Positions 1 to 7,007 of a stretch of 7,007 nt of DNA are shown here, piece by piece. Origin of the DNA: a virus. Taxonomy: Duplodnaviria; Heunggongvirae; Uroviricota; Caudoviricetes. Under the pieces are notes generated by a model. It worked only from the letters and a program-made list of their open reading frames with translations, made no database searches and was not told the origin of the DNA. The first letter of the stretch is position 1. Each line of letters starts with the position of its first letter. The position numbers and the translations under genes are program-made. Location: IMG/VR virus record IMGVR_UViG_2690316343_000005. One strand, 5' to 3'.

Positions 1-437
1 GCCCATACCGGCGGCTTACCATCCGGATACTGGATCTTGTTTGTAAAAACCTCGCTTTCAATAAATTTTTTTCCGTGACAGCAGGGGCACTGTTTTTTGC
101 TCGCCGCGCTACGGGCATAATCTTCAAACGCATACGAAGCCATAATACGCATCACTGCCGGTTTTATTTCTGCCGGGAGTTTTCTTAACGCCGCCACGCG
201 ATCACACCGACTGAGTGCATATTCTGTCAGCAATTCTGTTGCCCGCTCTCTGTCATTCATACTAATGCCCATTTTCCCAAGGAACGCAGAAACCCCCATC
301 TCAGCCCGATTCTGTGTCATGCCCTGCGCGGCCATCACATCAGTGATACTCAGCGCATCTTTCGACGTTGAGGCCGATGCATCAGTCAGGCCGGGGGATT
401 TTGGGGAGTAGTATTTCGGTAAATCTTCCAGTTTCAT
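1..437 (-). CDS. Q: Antitermination protein Q (lambda Q family), N-terminal 145 codons; C-terminus runs off the left window edge
   Basis: Manual minus-strand translation from ATG at 437..435 gives MKLEDLPKYYSPKSPGLTDASASTSKDALSITDVMAAQGMTQ...KQCPCCHGKKFIE with no stop to position 1. It closely parallels lambda Q as recalled (MRLESVAKFHSPKSP...GTDVMAAMGMAQ...CRDCHGTG zinc motif). The ATG overlaps the rusA TGA (ATGA). Confidence 0.85.
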   Translation of the reverse strand, partial: MKLEDLPKYYSPKSPGLTDASASTSKDALSITDVMAAQGMTQNRAEMGVSAFLGKMGISMNDRERATELLTEYALSRCDRVAALRKLPAEIKPAVMRIMASYAFEDYARSAASKKQCPCCHGKKFIESEVFTNKIQYPDGKPPVW

Positions 438-814
438 TTTTTGACCTGCCCTTCAAGCATTATGGGATAAATCTTCACCCCCAGACGTCCACCAGATACT
501 GGCTGACCACGAACGATATTGATTTCATCAAACTGCTCATCGTCCATTAGCAACCCCGCATGCGTCAGCGCATCCAGCGGCGCTTTCAGAATATTGTCCA
601 GGTCACGGCGGCGCTTATCCGGTGGTTCTGCAATAATTTTTATTGCCAACCTTCCGGACAGGCTTAATTTCAGCCGCTGCTGGCGAACAATAAGCGCCAC
701 TGCCCGGCGATAACGCTCCCCGGCTTTTGATACAAAATATGTGCTGCCACGACGACGCCAGTAAGTGTTCACCGTCGGCGGGTAAGGTAAAACAAATTCT
801 ATGCGCTCGGTCAT
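434..814 (-). CDS. rusA: Crossover junction endodeoxyribonuclease RusA (Holliday junction resolvase)
   Basis: 126-aa ORF with RusA hallmarks (LPYPPTVNTYW, DKRRRDLDNILKAPLDALTHAGLLMDDEQ) similar to E. coli RusA as recalled. ATG at 814..812 directly abuts the upstream gene's TAA. Confidence 0.9.
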   Translation of the reverse strand: MTERIEFVLPYPPTVNTYWRRRGSTYFVSKAGERYRRAVALIVRQQRLKLSLSGRLAIKIIAEPPDKRRRDLDNILKAPLDALTHAGLLMDDEQFDEINIVRGQPVSGGRLGVKIYPIMLEGQVKK

Positions 815-1873
815 TTATGCTTTCCACTTCAGAACACCCGAATTTCTCGCGTGCATTAAAAAACGAATCAGCAACAACAGCTGACTGCCGTGTTTCTCTT
901 CAAAATCTTTTACTCCGGCATGTAGTTCGTTACGGCATTTACGGCATAACGGAATAACAAACAAATCATCAGCCTTTGTTCCCATCCCTCCCAGTCCATG
1001 ACCAATGATGTGATGCGGATCATCTGCCTGATTGCCACACGTCATGCATTTCTGCGTTTTTACCCAGCGCGTGTATACAGGCATCTCTTCCCGTTGTGAT
1101 TTCTGGCGCTGGAGATACTGAGCCGGTGACTCCGGATCAACGGCAATGCTGACCACCGTCTTTTCCTGTGGTGGGTTCTGTTGCTGGTGGACGTGAGGCA
1201 GTAACGCAATATTTTTTGTGCGCTGCTTCAGTATGCTGGTGGCTGTCTGCTCTCCCGGTATGATGTCGCTTTCACTGTACACAGAGCGAATTTTTTCCGC
1301 ACGCAACCCCAGCGAACGACGTAATACCGCTTCCGGTAGCGCGTCCGCCACCTGATTGCGGACCGCCCACCAGGATAATTCAGCCAGAGATAATTCACGC
1401 TCCTGCGTACCGCTTATTGCGTGACCGATGACGTCAATCATCCATGCTGACAGGTTTTGATGAGCAAGTTGCTCGAGTGATTCGGATGTCTGGTCACGCA
1501 GCTGGTTGTCGCAGTGCCAGCACAACACCATTGCGCCGGTACCATAACGGTGAATGACGGTTTCGCTGTGATGATAATCGCCGTGTGGCCACTGGCAGGA
1601 TTTAATATGGCGCAACAGCCAGTCAGACAATGCACCAGCACCACCAGCAGCACGAATCACCCGTGCGTTACTGAAAAACGGCAGCAATGTTTTGTCTTCC
1701 ACCAGCGGCTGGCGAGCGGCAGGAACGACCCCGGACGGCAGATTACGCATGCTTTTTGGTTCCGGCTCCACCAGTATTCTGCCGTTATGGAATGCTGACA
1801 TTGATTCACGGCCTGGCTTAACGATAACCAGACCGAGTTCCGGTACCAGAACAGGTCGAAGTAATACCCGCAC
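815..1873 (-). CDS. DUF968-like (YdfU-like) prophage protein with C-terminal HNH-type Cys/His motif
   Basis: 352-aa ORF. C-terminus CMTCGNQADDPHHIIGHGLGG...LCRKCRNELH resembles an HNH/zinc-finger nuclease motif. A DUF968 gene sits between hok and Q in E. coli Qin prophage, as recalled. Start is GTG at 1873 preceded by GGAGGT; an alternative ATG lies at 1801. Confidence 0.65.
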   Translation of the reverse strand: MRVLLRPVLVPELGLVIVKPGRESMSAFHNGRILVEPEPKSMRNLPSGVVPAARQPLVEDKTLLPFFSNARVIRAAGGAGALSDWLLRHIKSCQWPHGDYHHSETVIHRYGTGAMVLCWHCDNQLRDQTSESLEQLAHQNLSAWMIDVIGHAISGTQERELSLAELSWWAVRNQVADALPEAVLRRSLGLRAEKIRSVYSESDIIPGEQTATSILKQRTKNIALLPHVHQQQNPPQEKTVVSIAVDPESPAQYLQRQKSQREEMPVYTRWVKTQKCMTCGNQADDPHHIIGHGLGGMGTKADDLFVIPLCRKCRNELHAGVKDFEEKHGSQLLLLIRFLMHARNSGVLKWKA

Positions 1874-1948
1874 ATTACCTCCAGATCCGTTGCTGGAATG
1901 TGCGGGACGGACGCGTTGGCCGTTCGGAGTAAGGGAGCCTGACGGAGA

Positions 1949-2230
1949 TTATCCAGTGACGGTAGTCGAGGCTAAGGGCTTTTTTAACCTCGCATCCGCG
2001 CCTGCGGTAACACTGAATGAGCCATTCGGCCTGTTCTTCAGTGCATGGGGGATGCTGGTACCAATCAGATTTAAATGCGTGAGAGCGCCGCCCGTGCCTG
2101 CTGGCAAAGACGGCTGAATTATCAGAATTGTGTAGTCTGGAAGGCAGTGGCTGACAATAGCGCCATTCTCAACGCGCACAGTATAGAGGCCATCTTCACT
2201 AAAAATTTCACGTAATTCTTCGATTTTCAT
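1949..2230 (-). CDS. Small hypothetical protein, copy 1 (MKIEELREIFSEDGLYTVRVENGAIVSHC...); shares first 29 codons with 2757..3044
   Basis: ATG at 2230..2228 preceded by GGAAGG 9 nt upstream. N-terminal 29 codons lie inside the 252-bp direct repeat; the C-terminal ~64 aa are unique. Confidence 0.4.
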   Translation of the reverse strand: MKIEELREIFSEDGLYTVRVENGAIVSHCLPDYTILIIQPSLPAGTGGALTHLNLIGTSIPHALKNRPNGSFSVTAGADARLKKPLASTTVTG

Positions 2231-2400
2231 CAACAGAATCCTTCCAGATAAATAGCACTCCCCTGTTCGGGGTCCATCCCTCTTCTCCCTGCGCGCTACT
2301 TAAGTATTTTTGATTCTATTCCGGCACCATCTAAAACTTCAAACGCGTTGAAAATAAAAACAAAAACCCGCCGAAACGCTGAGAGATCACAGCGATGGGC
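2149..2400. repeat. 252-bp direct repeat, copy 1 (hok-type terminator hairpin + promoter-like region + 5' end of small ORF); truncated by gap
   Basis: Aligns without indels to 2962..3213. Flanks are near-identical (gctgacaat...cttaagt and cccgccgaaacgctgagagatcacagcgatgggc); the central ~60 bp diverges. Confidence 0.8.
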
Positions 2401-2411
2401 NNNNNNNNNNN
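2401..2411. other. Assembly gap (11 N)
   Basis: Run of N in the sequence; it cuts a terminator hairpin on one side and an ORF on the other. Confidence 0.95.
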
Positions 2412-2718
2412 ATTGCTCTGCGGCTTCGCTCAGAGCTGGCGTATGTTCCCGGCCTACTGATTCACACAGGTAATCAACGAAACCGGACACCAGTTTTCGT
2501 TCGCGAGGCGTGATCGCCCCACCGACCGGAGTCCAGTAATCGAAACCCAGTTGCAGGAGTTTGAAAAAACGCTTGTGGAATGCGTAGTTACACACACGCT
2601 TAAAGTCTGCGTGTATCCACTCACCTATTTTGATTTGATGCAGAAAATCGCAACTCTCCGGCGTCGCCGGGAGAAGTAATCCGGAAGAGGTTTGTTTGAC
2701 CAGTTGTATATGTGCCAT
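2412..2718 (-). CDS. Hypothetical protein, partial (C-terminus lost in gap): MAHIQLVKQTSSGLLLPATPESCDFLHQIKIGEWIHADFKRVCNYAFHKRFFKLL...
   Basis: ATG at 2718..2716 with GGAG 7 nt upstream. Open frame continues to the N-run at 2411. The ORF-track TTG extension to 2760 has no RBS. No family recognised. Confidence 0.5.
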
Positions 2719-2756
2719 CGGCTTTCTCCGGTGGCACGGTGTTACACAGCAGGAGT

Positions 2757-3044
2757 TCAATCCTGCTCAAGATTGTAGATGAGTTTATTCTTCAGCAAAA
2801 GCAGAAAACCAGCCTTAAAACCAATCTCTTTCAAAACCCGTAATGATGTGACAAATTCGTCCTCACGCAAAATAAAACCGTCCGTCAGAAGTCCATTACA
2901 AAAATAAAATAACACAGCACCGCTCTTCCTTTGTTGAGATTGCAAACATCTAATGCGGCAATGGCTGACAATCGCTCCATTCTCAACGCGCACAGCATAG
3001 AGGCCATTTTCACTAAAAATTTCACGCAATTCTTCGATTTTCAT
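2757..3044 (-). CDS. Small hypothetical protein, copy 2 (MKIEELREIFSENGLYAVRVENGAIVSHC...), divergent C-terminus
   Basis: 95-aa ORF beginning inside the second 252-bp repeat copy, with the same RBS context as copy 1. Sits just downstream of the hok terminator and a promoter-like TTGATT-N16-TAGAAT. Confidence 0.4.
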   Translation of the reverse strand: MKIEELREIFSENGLYAVRVENGAIVSHCRIRCLQSQQRKSGAVLFYFCNGLLTDGFILREDEFVTSLRVLKEIGFKAGFLLLLKNKLIYNLEQD

Positions 3045-3213
3045 CTTCAGAATCCTTCCAGATAAATAGCTCTCCCCTGTTCGGGGTCCATCCCTCTTCT
3101 CCCTGCGCGCTACTTAAGTGAGTCGATTCTATCTGCGAAGGTGCGCGAATCAAATTCACCGGAAATAAACAACAAAAAACCCGCCGAAACGCTGAGAGAT
3201 CACAGCGATGGGC
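2962..3213. repeat. 252-bp direct repeat, copy 2
   Basis: See copy 1; identical length with scattered substitutions. Confidence 0.8.
3126..3153 (-). promoter_or_regulatory. Putative sigma70 promoter for the small ORF (minus strand TTGATT-N16-TAGAAT)
   Basis: Minus-strand -35 TTGATT (plus 3148..3153) and -10 TAGAAT (plus 3126..3131), 16-nt spacer, immediately downstream of the hok terminator. Read by eye only. Confidence 0.3.
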
Positions 3214-3216
3214 GGG
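3165..3216 (-). terminator. Rho-independent terminator of the hok transcript
   Basis: Minus-strand CCCGCC-(25 nt with inner CGCTG/CAGCG stem)-GGCGGG followed by TTTTTTGTTGTT. The same hairpin recurs, truncated, at 2367..2400. Confidence 0.6.
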
Positions 3217-3220
3217 TTAA

Positions 3221-3285
3221 GTGCGGGTGCGTTGAGGATGCCTGACACATCAGAGGTGGGCGGGGATGGGATCAGCTCCCCGCCC
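3221..3285 (-). promoter_or_regulatory. hok mRNA 3' UTR structure: 8-bp GC stem-loop (3258..3285) plus fbi-like element (3221..3237) complementary to the 5' leader
   Basis: GGGCGGGG-12 nt-CCCCGCCC lies 9 nt after the hok stop. Plus-strand 3221..3237 gtgcgggtgcgttgagg is the reverse complement, with one bulge, of 3792..3807 cctcaagcacccgcag. Confidence 0.5.
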
Positions 3286-3293
3286 GGTCACTC

Positions 3294-3633
3294 TTACTTC
3301 CTGGATTCGTAGTCTACGAAGACAGCGACCTCCGTCTGGCCGGTTCGGATTCGTACCTCACAGAGGTCTTTCCTCGTTACCAGTGCCGTCACTATGACGG
3401 TNNNNNNNNNNNNNNNNNNNNNNNNNNNNNNNNNNNNNNNNNNNNNNNNNNNNNNNNNNNNNNNNNNNNNNNNNNNNNNNNNNNNNNNNNNNNNNNNNNN
3501 NNNNNNNNNNNNNCTCCGTCTGGCCGGTTCGAATTCGTACCTCGCAGAGGTCTTTCCTCGTTACCAGTGCCGTCACTATGACGGTTAAACAGATGACGAT
3601 CAGGGCGATTAACATCGCCTTTTGCTGCTTCAT
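3294..3633 (-). CDS. hok: Hok-family type I toxin (51 aa), split in this assembly by the N-gap and a 72-bp duplicated overlap
   Basis: ATG at 3633..3631 with AGGAG 9 nt upstream. Reads MKQQKAMLIALIVICLTVIVTALVTRKDLCEVRIRTGQTE (3514..3633), then gap, then ...EVAVFVDYESRK with stop at 3296..3294. Removing 112 N and the 72-bp duplicate gives exactly 156 nt. Near-identical to E. coli HokD/RelF as recalled. Confidence 0.85.
3402..3513. other. Assembly gap (112 N) flanked by a 72-bp near-identical overlap (3330..3401 vs 3514..3585)
   Basis: The flanks differ at two positions (G/A, A/G), both synonymous in hok. Confidence 0.95.
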
Positions 3634-3839
3634 AGCCTGCTTCTCCTTGCCTTTCGGCATGTAAGAGGCTAACCTACATGTGCAAAGCATGAAATTGGCC
3701 TCAGATTAATGTTAAGCGTCTTGCCGGACGCGTAATGTTAACTGGGGCTTTTCTCTATCTGCCTTTTGGTGTTCATGCCTGAAGCAGATAGCCTCAAGCA
3801 CCCGCAGTCATTCTACTTACCTCGCCAATATGAAATCAA
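3634..3839 (-). promoter_or_regulatory. hok promoter and long 5' leader (tac-like element; expected mok/sok region)
   Basis: Minus-strand -35 TTGATT (plus 3834..3839), 18-nt spacer, -10 TAGAAT (plus 3810..3815). The leader begins with GCGGGTGCTTGAGG, complementary to the 3' UTR element. The ~170-nt leader fits hok/sok-type loci. A sok promoter could not be pinpointed. Confidence 0.4.
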
Positions 3840-3860
3840 TCAGAAAGGTGCCCCATAAAA

Positions 3861-4547
3861 TCACTCCTTCTCTTCTTTACCGTAGTGGAGTTGACCAATT
3901 TTGATAAGAGGGCGTCCCTGAGATTTGCGGTGTAGATTGGTATCGCGCAGAGAATACACACAGCCACAATATTCCTGCTGATAGAATTTTTCGCGCTTGC
4001 TGATTTCAATCATACGGGACGAGCCGCCCTGCTTGCGCCAGTTATAATCCCAGTACACCATGCCCGGATAATGCGCGACGGCTCGCCGCCCACAGTCGTT
4101 AACCTGCTGCATATTTTTCCAGCGTGAAATGCCCAGTGAACTGCTGATCACACTGAAACCATTTTCAGCGGCGTACAGCGCTGTCCGCTCAAAACGCATG
4201 TCAAAACACATGGTGCAACGGATCCCTCGTTCGGGCTCCCATTCCATTCCTTTGGCTCGTTCAAACCAGTTGTCTGTGTCGTAATCAGCATCAATAAACG
4301 GCACGCCGTGTTGTTCAGCAAAGCGAATATTCTCATCCTTACGAATTAAATACTCTTTCTGAGGATGAATGTTCGGGTTGTAGAAAAAGATGGTGTAGTC
4401 GATTCCCGAGGCCTGAAGCGCCTCCATCACCTCACCGGAACATGGAGCACAGCAAGAGTGCAGTAGTAGTTTGTTTGCCCCGTTTGGGAGCTCCAATTTG
4501 GGCCGTTTGAAATCAGCAACTGTCATAAATATGTTTATTGGGGTCAT
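3861..4547 (-). CDS. queH: QueH-like epoxyqueuosine reductase homolog (DUF208 family, Fe-S enzyme)
   Basis: 228-aa ORF with [15 protein letters not shown] near the N-terminus plus conserved [19 protein letters not shown] and QEYCGCVYS motifs typical of DUF208/QueH. An alternative ATG lies at 4526; neither start has a clear RBS. Confidence 0.8.
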
Positions 4548-4694
4548 AAAAATATCAAAGAGTGTAGCATTAGAACGGGGCTATCGGAAACAGATGTGTG
4601 ACTGCTCCCCGCCCTTTCGGGTGGTCTCCTGATGATTTGAGGGTGCAGAAATCCCTCCGGTTAAGGATTAAATTTTTAACAGTGCTAAATTTAA

Positions 4695-5108
4695 TTATTC
4701 AGTTCTGGATTTTGTCGCCCTGCGTATCCGCGCTTTCGCGTTACGCTCAATCTGTATCAGCTTTTCTATATTTCTCCGCCTTTCCTGTTCCTCCTGGCGC
4801 AATAGCCTTACATCATCTGCCAGTCTGGTTTCTCTTTTTGCCACAGAGAGCATCCAGTCAAACGGCTCCACAACCGCACCGCAGATTTTACAGCGGACCT
4901 GACGCTCTTTTTCGTCAACCCGGACAGAGGCGTGATGGCAATATGGTCTTTCCGATGGCTCATAAAGAAAATTAACCTGATTACGAGGGTCATCCTCTTT
5001 TACCGGAAATAAAACGATATTGCTTAACTCATCTTCTGGTTTTATTTCCATGCTCCTCTCCTTTGATGCGAATGCCAGCGGTAATTGAAGCCTGATAGCT
5101 AATTTCAT
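4695..5108 (-). CDS. Hypothetical zinc-ribbon protein with basic coiled-coil C-terminus
   Basis: C-H-H...C-x2-C cluster (YCHHASVRVDEKERQVRCKICG) followed by a charged helical tail (RLLRQEEQERRRNIEKLIQIERNAKARIRR). ATG at 5108 abuts the upstream TGA (AGGAGG 11 nt upstream); an alternative ATG at 5051 has AGGAG 6 nt upstream. Confidence 0.6.
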   Translation of the reverse strand: MKLAIRLQLPLAFASKERSMEIKPEDELSNIVLFPVKEDDPRNQVNFLYEPSERPYCHHASVRVDEKERQVRCKICGAVVEPFDWMLSVAKRETRLADDVRLLRQEEQERRRNIEKLIQIERNAKARIRRATKSRTE

Positions 5109-5531
5109 TCACAGTATCGCCTCCTGAAAATTACCCTGATAGAAAGCCAGTACACGCTGCATAGCTTCGCTCTTCCGGCACTCGCGACAGATTATATTCA
5201 GGCGCCTGTCGTAGCGGCGTATTTCTCCGTCAGGTAATGACCAGATAAGGTCCGGATCAACAACAACCGGTTTCCTCACCTTTACTCTCGAGAGTTTTTT
5301 GCGGGCGCTTTGCCAGTCCTTGCGAGCCTGTTCAGACGGGAATAAGCCGTAGCCAGAATTATATACATCACCACTTGCGACCAGTTCTATGCATAAGCGA
5401 CCGACAGACGCACGACTGATACCTGTTTCATCTGACAACTGCCGAATCGTGACCCGACCGTCCTGATGCACGAGTTCCACAATTCGCGTCTTCAGTTCTT
5501 CCCGCTGTTCGGGAGTAAAAGGTTTCGCCAT
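5109..5531 (-). CDS. Winged-helix DNA-binding protein, possibly YdaW/DUF977-like, with C-terminal CxxC
   Basis: 140-aa ORF. N-terminal HTH-like segment (TIRQLSDETGISRASVGRLCIELVASG) and CRECRK near the C-terminus. AGGAGG lies 4 nt before the ATG. Its position after the DnaC-like gene mirrors ydaU-ydaV-ydaW in Rac prophage, as recalled. Confidence 0.65.
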   Translation of the reverse strand: MAKPFTPEQREELKTRIVELVHQDGRVTIRQLSDETGISRASVGRLCIELVASGDVYNSGYGLFPSEQARKDWQSARKKLSRVKVRKPVVVDPDLIWSLPDGEIRRYDRRLNIICRECRKSEAMQRVLAFYQGNFQEAIL

Positions 5532-5545
5532 AAATCCTCCTGAAA

Positions 5546-6292
5546 CTACTTAACAACCCTCGAATGGCTAACATTCGGACGCCAGCTCTCCCAGTTAAAA
5601 TTCACCCAGCGCCCGCCGTTCATGACCATGCGATCCATCACCCGCTCGCCGAGCAATGTTTTCATCACCTCATAGTTCAGGTTTGTCAGCATCCCCACGC
5701 TGCGCATCGACGCTGTCCGGCGATCAACAATCTGGTGCAGCACCACCTGCTCGTTTTTCGTCTCGCGCTGAATGCCAATTTCATCAAGAACCAGCAGATC
5801 CACTTCGCACAGCTCCCGCAAAAATTTTTCGCCTGACTGCCCGTCGTCATAGCTGGCGTGCAGGGCGCTCATAACATCAGCCACGGTAACCACAATCACT
5901 GTCTGACCGTCTTTCAGCAGGCGATTCCCGATAGCTGCCGCTAAGTGATTCTTCCCGGTACCAGGTTTTCCGCTGAACGCAAAATTTGTACACCCGGTCA
6001 TCAGTTCATCGGCGATGGATTTCGCCTGGCTTAACGCGTATCGCTGGCCGTCGTTCTGCACCTGGTAATTCGCAAACGAGCATTTACGGTGCAACGGCTG
6101 GATGCCTGAGCGATTCAGAATTTTTTCCACCCGCAACTGGCGATTCAGGCGGTTGATCTCCTCGCTACGTTTCTGGCCTTCAGCAAGTTGCCACTCGCGC
6201 CACTCCGCTACCGTTCTGAATGGGGCGGTTACATGTGGCGGGGTCAGTCGGCGGATGCGTTCCAGAACGCCGCCTGTCGCAATATTTTTCAT
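5546..6292 (-). CDS. DnaC-like replicative helicase loader (IstB-like AAA+ ATPase)
   Basis: 248 aa with Walker A FSGKPGTGKNHLAAAIGN and Walker B DLLVLDEIG. Collinear high similarity to E. coli DnaC as recalled (NRSGIQPLH, LGERVMDRM). Confidence 0.9.
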   Translation of the reverse strand: MKNIATGGVLERIRRLTPPHVTAPFRTVAEWREWQLAEGQKRSEEINRLNRQLRVEKILNRSGIQPLHRKCSFANYQVQNDGQRYALSQAKSIADELMTGCTNFAFSGKPGTGKNHLAAAIGNRLLKDGQTVIVVTVADVMSALHASYDDGQSGEKFLRELCEVDLLVLDEIGIQRETKNEQVVLHQIVDRRTASMRSVGMLTNLNYEVMKTLLGERVMDRMVMNGGRWVNFNWESWRPNVSHSRVVK

Positions 6293-6298
6293 GGTCCG

Positions 6299-7007
6299 TT
6301 ACCCCCTGAAGCCTGGCGGGATCGCACTGTCCGGCAACGAGACGGTGTTAACCTGTCGGAGCAACGTCTCAGGCCGAACACCTTTCGGCGCGAACAGGCC
6401 CTGGTATTCATTGGCGATGCTGTGTCGAATCACCTGCTCAGGTGTAAAACCCTGCTGACGGAATTTTTCCAGTTCCCGTATCGCCCCGTTAGCGCCCTGC
6501 TCCGTTCGAATCGGTTTTCGCAATGCCTGTCTGAACCGGACCCACTCATGCCAGAGTGTTTCCGGCAACCAATCGGGCAGCTCAATAGCCTCCGGCTCGA
6601 ATTTTTTAGACGCTCGTTTTTGGCGAGGGGGAGATCAGTATTTAGATCTTCCTCTTCCTCTTCCTCTGGTAACGCTTTTTGATCCGTTTGTGTAACGCTG
6701 GCAGCGTTACCTTTTCGTTTCAGTTCGCGTATTTTTGTTACTCGCTCGTTTGTAACCGCCCGTTTTTTTTAGAGCTTTTTCCGTTATGACGTTCAAAGTT
6801 AGGTAGAGAAAGCCCTCCGTCATTTTCGACCAGCCATCCAACCTGAATTAACGCATCAGCAAAACCAGACATAAAAGTGATGCGATCTATTGCACTTTTT
6901 GTAACGCCGCGAGCGTTACAATCTGCATTACCGTCTATCATTTGTTGATCCGCCCATGCCCAGAAGCGAATAACCTGAGGTAGCCTGAGTTTAACGGACA
7001 CTCCTTC
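6299..7007 (-). pseudogene. Replication initiator (YdaU/DUF1376-like, O-protein analogue) interrupted by two frameshifts at homopolymers; N-terminus may extend past the right edge
   Basis: Three consecutive open frames on the minus strand join into one protein if one A is added at the 8-nt run (plus 6773..6780) and one at the 6-nt run (plus 6602..6607): MSVKLRLPQV...GKSSKK|RAVTNERVTKIRELKRK...PEEEEEEDL...AKNERLK|FEPEAIELPDWLPETLWHEW...GFRG*. The stop is 6 nt before the DnaC-like ATG. Confidence 0.6.
6633..6770. repeat. Origin-like sequence cluster inside the replication gene: 3 GATC sites in 52 bp, (GAGGAA)x3, perfect 9-bp inverted repeat GTAACGCTG-g-CAGCGTTAC and related TTTGTAAC(C)GC motifs
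   Basis: GATC at 6633, 6645 and 6681; cttcct x3 at 6649..6667; inverted repeat at about 6691..6709; similar motifs near 6669 and 6755. Confidence 0.3.

Follow-up and report, generated by a model that had tools for sequence, protein, structure and literature searches.

How does a short prophage toxin gene come to be written twice, in two overlapping pieces, on either side of a run of N? The stretch of DNA analyzed here in full (7,007 nt, hereafter the window) contains two such runs, one of 11 N at 2401-2411 and one of 112 N at 3402-3513. The longer run separates two 72-nt segments, 3330-3401 and 3514-3585, that match at 70 of 72 positions. The two mismatches (G at 3348 against A at 3532, and A at 3360 against G at 3544) each affect the third base of a codon in the minus-strand hok gene and are synonymous; the variant codons are codon 34, ATC or ATT (Ile), and codon 30, TGT or TGC (Cys). 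A match of 72 nt at 97% within 7 kb cannot be chance. The original prediction, that the same hok segment occurs twice with two synonymous differences, is thereby exact in every detail. It further proposed that two contig ends had been left unmerged and that a scaffolder had inserted the 112 N between them, and it is this proposal that the relatives of the window allow us to evaluate.

The window is three contigs (c1, c2 and c3; Table 1) from a short-read, IS-rich, Shigella sonnei-like draft. On the complete E. coli FDAARGOS_944 genome (L001), c2 aligns at 5001-5990 with 99.9% identity and c3 at 5919-9389 with 99.45% identity, so that the two alignments have exactly 72 nt in common, within one hokD. 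The same exact 72-nt overlap (5644-5715, with c2 at 5644-6633) is seen in eight further gap-free records (L016-L020 and L022-L024), which were retrieved through the 95-aa protein. These include HE616528.1, which we take to be Shigella sonnei 53G; the matching plasmid record, NC_016833.1, carries the label S. sonnei 53G. Five of the eight (L017-L020 and L022) are 100.000% identical to c2, and 18 IMG/VR contigs run uninterrupted through hokD with the c2 allele. Judged from the 72-nt overlaps in the gap-free records and from these uninterrupted contigs, the 112-N gap would be false and the adjacency of c2 and c3 real, at a true distance of -72 nt. The flanks of the gap thus share 72 bases of one hokD in gap-free relatives, as the proposal of unmerged contig ends requires.

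Collapsing the two copies gives a single unbroken open reading frame of 51 codons, MKQQKAMLIALIVICLTVIVTALVTRKDLCEVRIRTGQTEVAVFVDYESRK, equal in length to the hokD annotated by RefSeq in E. coli FDAARGOS_944. The merged 51-aa protein scores 81.1 bits against the Pfam family HOK_GEF (PF01848), for which the cut-off is 22, and covers profile positions 1-42 of 42. For this gap, then, the flanks overlap in relatives, their collapse restores a known gene and the contig ends lie at multi-copy repeats. Contig ends that overlap at a repeat but stay unmerged are a well-known artefact of scaffolding, and the apparent tandem duplication is not real.

In order to trace the two variant bases, the contigs were compared with two arrangements found among the references. 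Locus A has the order antiterminator, rusA, DUF968, rem-like remnant, hokD; locus B has the order IS600, DUF1367', rem, hokD, queH, DUF977, ydaV. Apart from a C/G difference at 507, positions 1-2375 of c1 equal the sequence of nine complete 4.8-Mb genomes (L005-L011, L013 and L014), in which hokD comes directly next, not DUF1367. A tenth genome with locus A, L012, carries an extra 250 nt. The A at 3532 and the G at 3544 in the head of c3 are the hok allele of L005-L014, that is, of locus A, and all locus-B references carry the c2 bases, G and A, at these positions. Set against the locus-B reference L018, c3 differs at 3532, 3544 and 4923 and in how many times a hexamer is repeated, and nowhere else. 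An exact core of 115 nt is common to the hok genes of loci A and B; c2 stops 41 nt inside this core, while c3 starts 31 nt to the left of it and exits it as locus B.

Table 1. Features of the window, with coordinates counted from its first base; c1, c2 and c3 are the three contigs.
Feature	Position	Strand	Description
Contig 1 (c1)	1-2400	-	3' part of antiterminator, rusA, DUF968, degraded rem-like region
Contig 2 (c2)	2412-3401	-	DUF1367 first half, 95-aa rem-family gene, terminator, 3' hok
Contig 3 (c3)	3514-7007	-	5' hok, leader, queH, 118-aa gene, DUF977, ydaV/DnaC-like gene, replication-gene fragments
Antiterminator gene, 3' part	1-437	-	c1, locus A
rusA	434-814	-	Pfam RusA
DUF968 gene	815-1873	-	Pfam DUF968
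Degraded rem-like region	1875-2233	-	followed by an intergenic stretch into the hok terminator
Putative chimeric c1 tail	2376-2400	-	equals 3189-3213; locus-B 23-nt insert; breaks off midway through the hairpin stem
11-N scaffold gap	2401-2411		joins c1 and c2
DUF1367 gene, 5' half	2412-2718	-	Pfam DUF1367, profile positions 1-101 of 198; c2 left end
95-aa gene	2757-3044	-	Rem family (PF27490) by the collection's precomputed annotation; identical protein present in many genomes
Intrinsic terminator of the hok transcript	3170-3218	-	8-bp G+C stem, inner hairpin, then U run
hokD 3' part	3294-3401	-	codons 17-51 and stop; c2 right end; locus-B allele (G 3348, A 3360)
Overlap copy 1	3330-3401	-	hok codons 17-40
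112-N gap	3402-3513		between c2 and c3; predicted true distance -72 nt
Overlap copy 2	3514-3585	-	hok codons 17-40; 3514-3544 with locus-A alleles
hokD 5' part	3514-3633	-	codons 1-40; c3 left end
Exact core common to locus-A and locus-B hok	3545-3659	-	115 nt; pairwise alignment of L005 and L018
hok mRNA leader / sok target region	3628-3803	-	Rfam RF01794 'sok'
queH homologue (epoxyqueuosine reductase)	3861-4547	-	Pfam QueH, 220.6 bits; RefSeq annotation
118-aa zinc-ribbon-like gene	4695-5051	-	
DUF977 gene	5109-5531	-	
ydaV/DnaC-like ATPase gene	5546-6292	-	
IS600 far end	6976-7007		32 nt; exact match to the IS600 copy in L018

The combination of alleles at the head of c3 appears to be peculiar to this assembly. 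Among 5,426 complete E. coli genomes the best match to this haplotype was 245/247, and a 175-mer from the c3 head had 0 exact matches in GTDB representatives, JGI metagenomes and IMG/VR. With a degenerate pattern as control, 19 IMG/VR contigs were recovered, 18 of them with (G,A) at the two sites, one with (G,G) and none with (A,G), so the exact-pattern scans work. We conclude that the head of c3 would be chimeric, assembled from reads that belong to the paralogous locus.

Given that c1 and c2/c3 sit in the same scaffold, we infer that one source genome carries both loci. A gap-free genome with loci A and B together was not found, exact-protein look-ups gave disjoint sets of assemblies, and A-type and B-type contigs have no IMG/VR taxon id in common. 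The original prediction had left a choice between two nearly identical hok-bearing prophage regions and a heterogeneous sample; the former gains support because the variant bases are the allele of a second locus, and the latter is not needed.

The smaller gap involves the terminator of the hok transcript. This intrinsic terminator folds at -24.7 kcal/mol (z = -4.9), and 0/200 shuffled sequences folded as well. A simple terminator scan missed it, its loop being larger than the limit of the scan; folding shows the hairpin. The terminator occurs in two forms, as seen by comparing 3176-3213 of the window with 5499-5476 of L005. The short form is the hairpin CCCGCC GAA GCGGG, and the long form has a 23-nt insert that makes an inner hairpin. 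In the 25 loci fetched, the long form was present in 10/10 B-type and 0/15 A-type loci.

To the left of the 11 N, positions 2351-2400 repeat 3164-3213 at 90%, with the last 39 nt exact, and this repeat is the hok terminator hairpin. The tail of c1 leaves all locus-A references at 2376, and none of the complete E. coli genomes covers c1 beyond base 2378. A 45-mer from the tail was in none of the fetched loci, and the 60-mer 2341-2400 was absent from GTDB representatives, JGI metagenomes and IMG/VR. On the right of the gap the situation is different: position 2412 is the exact base at which an insertion sequence interrupts DUF1367 in L018, L019 and L022, as compared with the intact gene in L020, and the interrupting element is 99.8-99.9% identical to annotated IS600. 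The suggestion of a repeated terminator around the 11-N gap is therefore correct for its left flank and wrong for its right flank, which is an IS600 boundary in DUF1367.

The natural neighbours across this gap are hokD on the c1 side and IS600 or the rest of DUF1367 on the c2 side, and no junction of c1 beside c2 occurs in any reference or complete E. coli genome. We judge the c1-c2 join to be, on these comparisons, a probable chimeric mis-scaffold, and its likely cause is that both contigs link by read pairs into the common hok region. The warning that adjacency across both gaps was unverified, and the gene order perhaps chimeric, thus applies to the 11-N join; it does not extend to the 112-N gap, where synteny in many complete genomes corroborates the adjacency of c2 and c3. 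We also considered a real c1-IS600-c2 structure produced by IS-IS recombination. This was rejected, as the IS600 copy beside locus A and the one beside locus B are oppositely oriented in the frame of the window and approximately 2.3 kb would be missing too.

A further copy of IS600 is met at the far end of c3, and alignment to references without it stops at 6976. The window and c3 end inside multi-copy IS600, and so, probably, does the whole 7,007-nt scaffold. Repeats (the hok terminator and core, the IS600 boundary and the IS600 end) are thus found at each inner contig end and where the window stops on the right.

Our preferred reading, to which we assign a probability of roughly 0.8, is that the overlap and the N are an assembly artefact within one hokD, with a second hok locus as the cause, and that the 11-N join is a mis-scaffold. 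The source genome would contain two hok-bearing prophage remnants, locus A and locus B, and contigs would break at hok because the two loci share the exact 115-nt core and near-identical flanks. Contig c2, from locus B, would extend 41 nt into the core; c3 would be locus B from the core on, with its first 31 nt assembled from locus-A reads, and the two synonymous differences would be the consequence. These two mismatches would then block merging, so that the contig ends would stay unmerged and the scaffolder would write 112 N for a true distance of -72 nt. Contig c1, from locus A, should continue into locus A's own hokD, and c2 should follow IS600.

Such a history closely resembles false gaps with redundant contig ends in short-read scaffolds. 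There, as here, a run of N stands between the same sequence written twice, the flanks fold onto one copy in finished genomes, the contig ends lie at repeat boundaries (here the hok core and IS600) and mismatches between paralogues block merging. We see no essential difference between those cases and this one; we infer the assembler behaviour that would produce the chimeric ends, as well as the step that would yield the lengths of 11 and 112. The locus-B-type tail of c1 has only 14 nt in common with the true locus-A sequence before the two diverge. This is awkward for a simple k-mer-graph account; an assembler that works by overlaps, or a step that closes gaps, would fit it. An attempt to read a k-mer size from the exact overlaps gave inconsistent values (39 nt for the c1 tail, 41 nt for the c2 tail and 18 nt for the c3 head), and we therefore draw no conclusion about the assembler.

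Could the head of c3 instead be genuine? A crossover in the 115-nt hok core, for example through an inversion, would join the left side of locus A to the right side of locus B; c1 would then truly lie some 110 nt to the left of c3, and c2 would be the misplaced contig. It is true that c3 physically joins A-type SNPs to B-type sequence and that c1 and c3 are in one scaffold. In locus A, moreover, the sites where c1 ends and c3 begins lie 109 nt apart, close to the 112 N, which could hint at a c1-c3 link. However, the haplotype is absent from the 5,426 complete E. coli genomes, the fetched Shigella-type genomes, GTDB representatives, JGI metagenomes and IMG/VR, and a single crossover in the core leaves the B-type 23-nt insert on the c1 tail unexplained, while chimeric contig ends are common at repeats. 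We regard a real recombinant as unlikely. If it were true, the chromosomal rearrangement would be real, and hok paralogues would be recombination substrates alongside IS elements.

The presence of two alleles of the same 72 nt in one assembly might equally bring to mind mixed strains, or a heterogeneous culture, differing at the two synonymous hok sites with one allele at each contig end. The second allele, however, is identical to the one at the paralogous hok locus, and c1, which flanks that locus, is in the scaffold. No other heterogeneity is visible: c2 is 100% identical to references and c3 has one further SNP in 3.5 kb. With the paralogue accounting for everything by itself, a mixture seems very improbable. 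There is still less to be said for taking the sequence as literally right, with a tandem partial hok duplication around 112 bases or with the N as a deliberate mask. Every gap-free relative examined has one hokD on which the flanks overlap by exactly 72 nt, the 18 IMG/VR contigs are uninterrupted, and the other N run adjoins an exact IS600 boundary, a typical contig end. A duplication with a period of 184 nt would, moreover, leave two truncated hok fragments. This reading does take the sequence as written, and some collections do contain masked stretches, but its chances are minimal: both the 184-nt-period duplication and the masking were rejected on the single hokD with its 72-nt overlap in all references. 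Our preferred reading, an artefact in one hokD caused by a second hok locus, is the one carried forward below.

The gene restored by merging belongs to a well-described toxin family. Hok toxins are membrane proteins, and their translation is held off by folding of the mRNA leader together with the antisense Sok RNA. The leader region here matches Rfam RF01794 over the full model length, at 117 bits (gathering score 59) and E = 6e-27. This 'sok antitoxin' match lies on the hok-sense strand and ends at the hok start codon. What it describes here is the hok mRNA leader, rather than the antisense transcript. A simple promoter scan found no plus-strand promoter for Sok within 3600-3800; its three consensus matches are all on the minus strand, a number that is not significant against the 1.4 expected. 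Once the copies are merged, a frame of 70 codons, extended upstream, runs from 3690 to 3294.

The hokD (relF) of the Qin cryptic prophage in E. coli K-12 likewise encodes a 51-aa HOK_GEF toxin and likewise lies in the late or nin-type region of a lambdoid prophage, and RefSeq gives the locus-B gene the same name, hokD. Locus-A hokD encodes MKQQ...VAVFTAYEPEE, presumably the exact K-12 HokD sequence. The C-terminus distinguishes locus-B HokD, which ends in VDYESRK (3294-3329), from K-12 HokD and the locus-A protein, which end in TAYEPEE. In both loci hokD retains TAC as the Tyr47 codon, with a G after it. Compared with K-12 HokD, locus B retains a full-length leader that fits the Rfam sok/hok model. 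With hok/sok of plasmid R1 it has the toxin family in common, and the leader RNA of both is recognized by the same Rfam model; the 70-codon frame corresponds in position and length to an R1-type mok. The R1 system is located on a plasmid, whereas the locus described here is chromosomal, in a prophage and known from sequence. The feature underneath the assembly problem would thus be a standard prophage hok/sok-type type I toxin-antitoxin locus (hokD), well known and without new biology.

The hok region is multi-copy: complete E. coli genomes contain it at 2 places in the median and at as many as 9-10. Multiple hok copies per genome, enriched in prophages, have also been described (bioRxiv 10.1101/2025.08.07.668861), and the chromosomal hok loci that have been tested show no post-segregational killing (literature summarized in 10.1101/2025.08.07.668861).

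Several observations on the other genes of the window may be recorded. The 95-aa gene of c2 gave no match in a Pfam scan at E<=0.001. The queH homologue, a tRNA modification gene, is carried by the prophage as cargo, with the hok leader on one side and the replication module on the other, and the hokD-queH arrangement is widespread in E. coli prophages. Upstream of ydaV, the replication gene at 6299-7001 (minus strand) is represented by ORFs of 89 and 87 aa, compared with 262 aa in L016; calls for this gene in S. sonnei-type genomes are fragmentary too, and it is probably a pseudogene. Within this degraded region the hexamer TCTTCC is repeated 3.5 times at 6647-6667, and finished relatives have extra units (three more in L018, four in L020, five in L019 and one in L017), a difference that could be either a genuine VNTR or a short-read assembly collapse.

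On the c1 side, c1 and most S. sonnei-type genomes are without the 250 nt present in L012. The loss fuses the first ~30 codons of the rem-like gene to other sequence (a 94-aa ORF at 1949-2233), and leaves an ORF at 1875-2147, just upstream of DUF968, without a standard start codon. Outside the contig ends, 507 and 4923 are the only substitutions relative to finished S. sonnei-type genomes. The C/G change at 507 places Gly at RusA residue 103, where the references have Ala; the Gly103 variant is known from a related prophage, in E. coli contigs with 97.8% identity. The G/T change at 4923 is synonymous.

Read literally, the window would show a split and duplicated hokD, when the real gene is single and intact. 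The gene order of the scaffold, with rusA, DUF968 and DUF1367' adjacent, is found in none of the genomes examined. Used for annotation, or for counts of toxin-antitoxin loci, prophage modules or pseudogenes, this sequence would yield two hok fragments and a false synteny. This matters for data hygiene only, and the case illustrates that drafts of Shigella and E. coli are broken up by short paralogous prophage genes as well as by IS elements.
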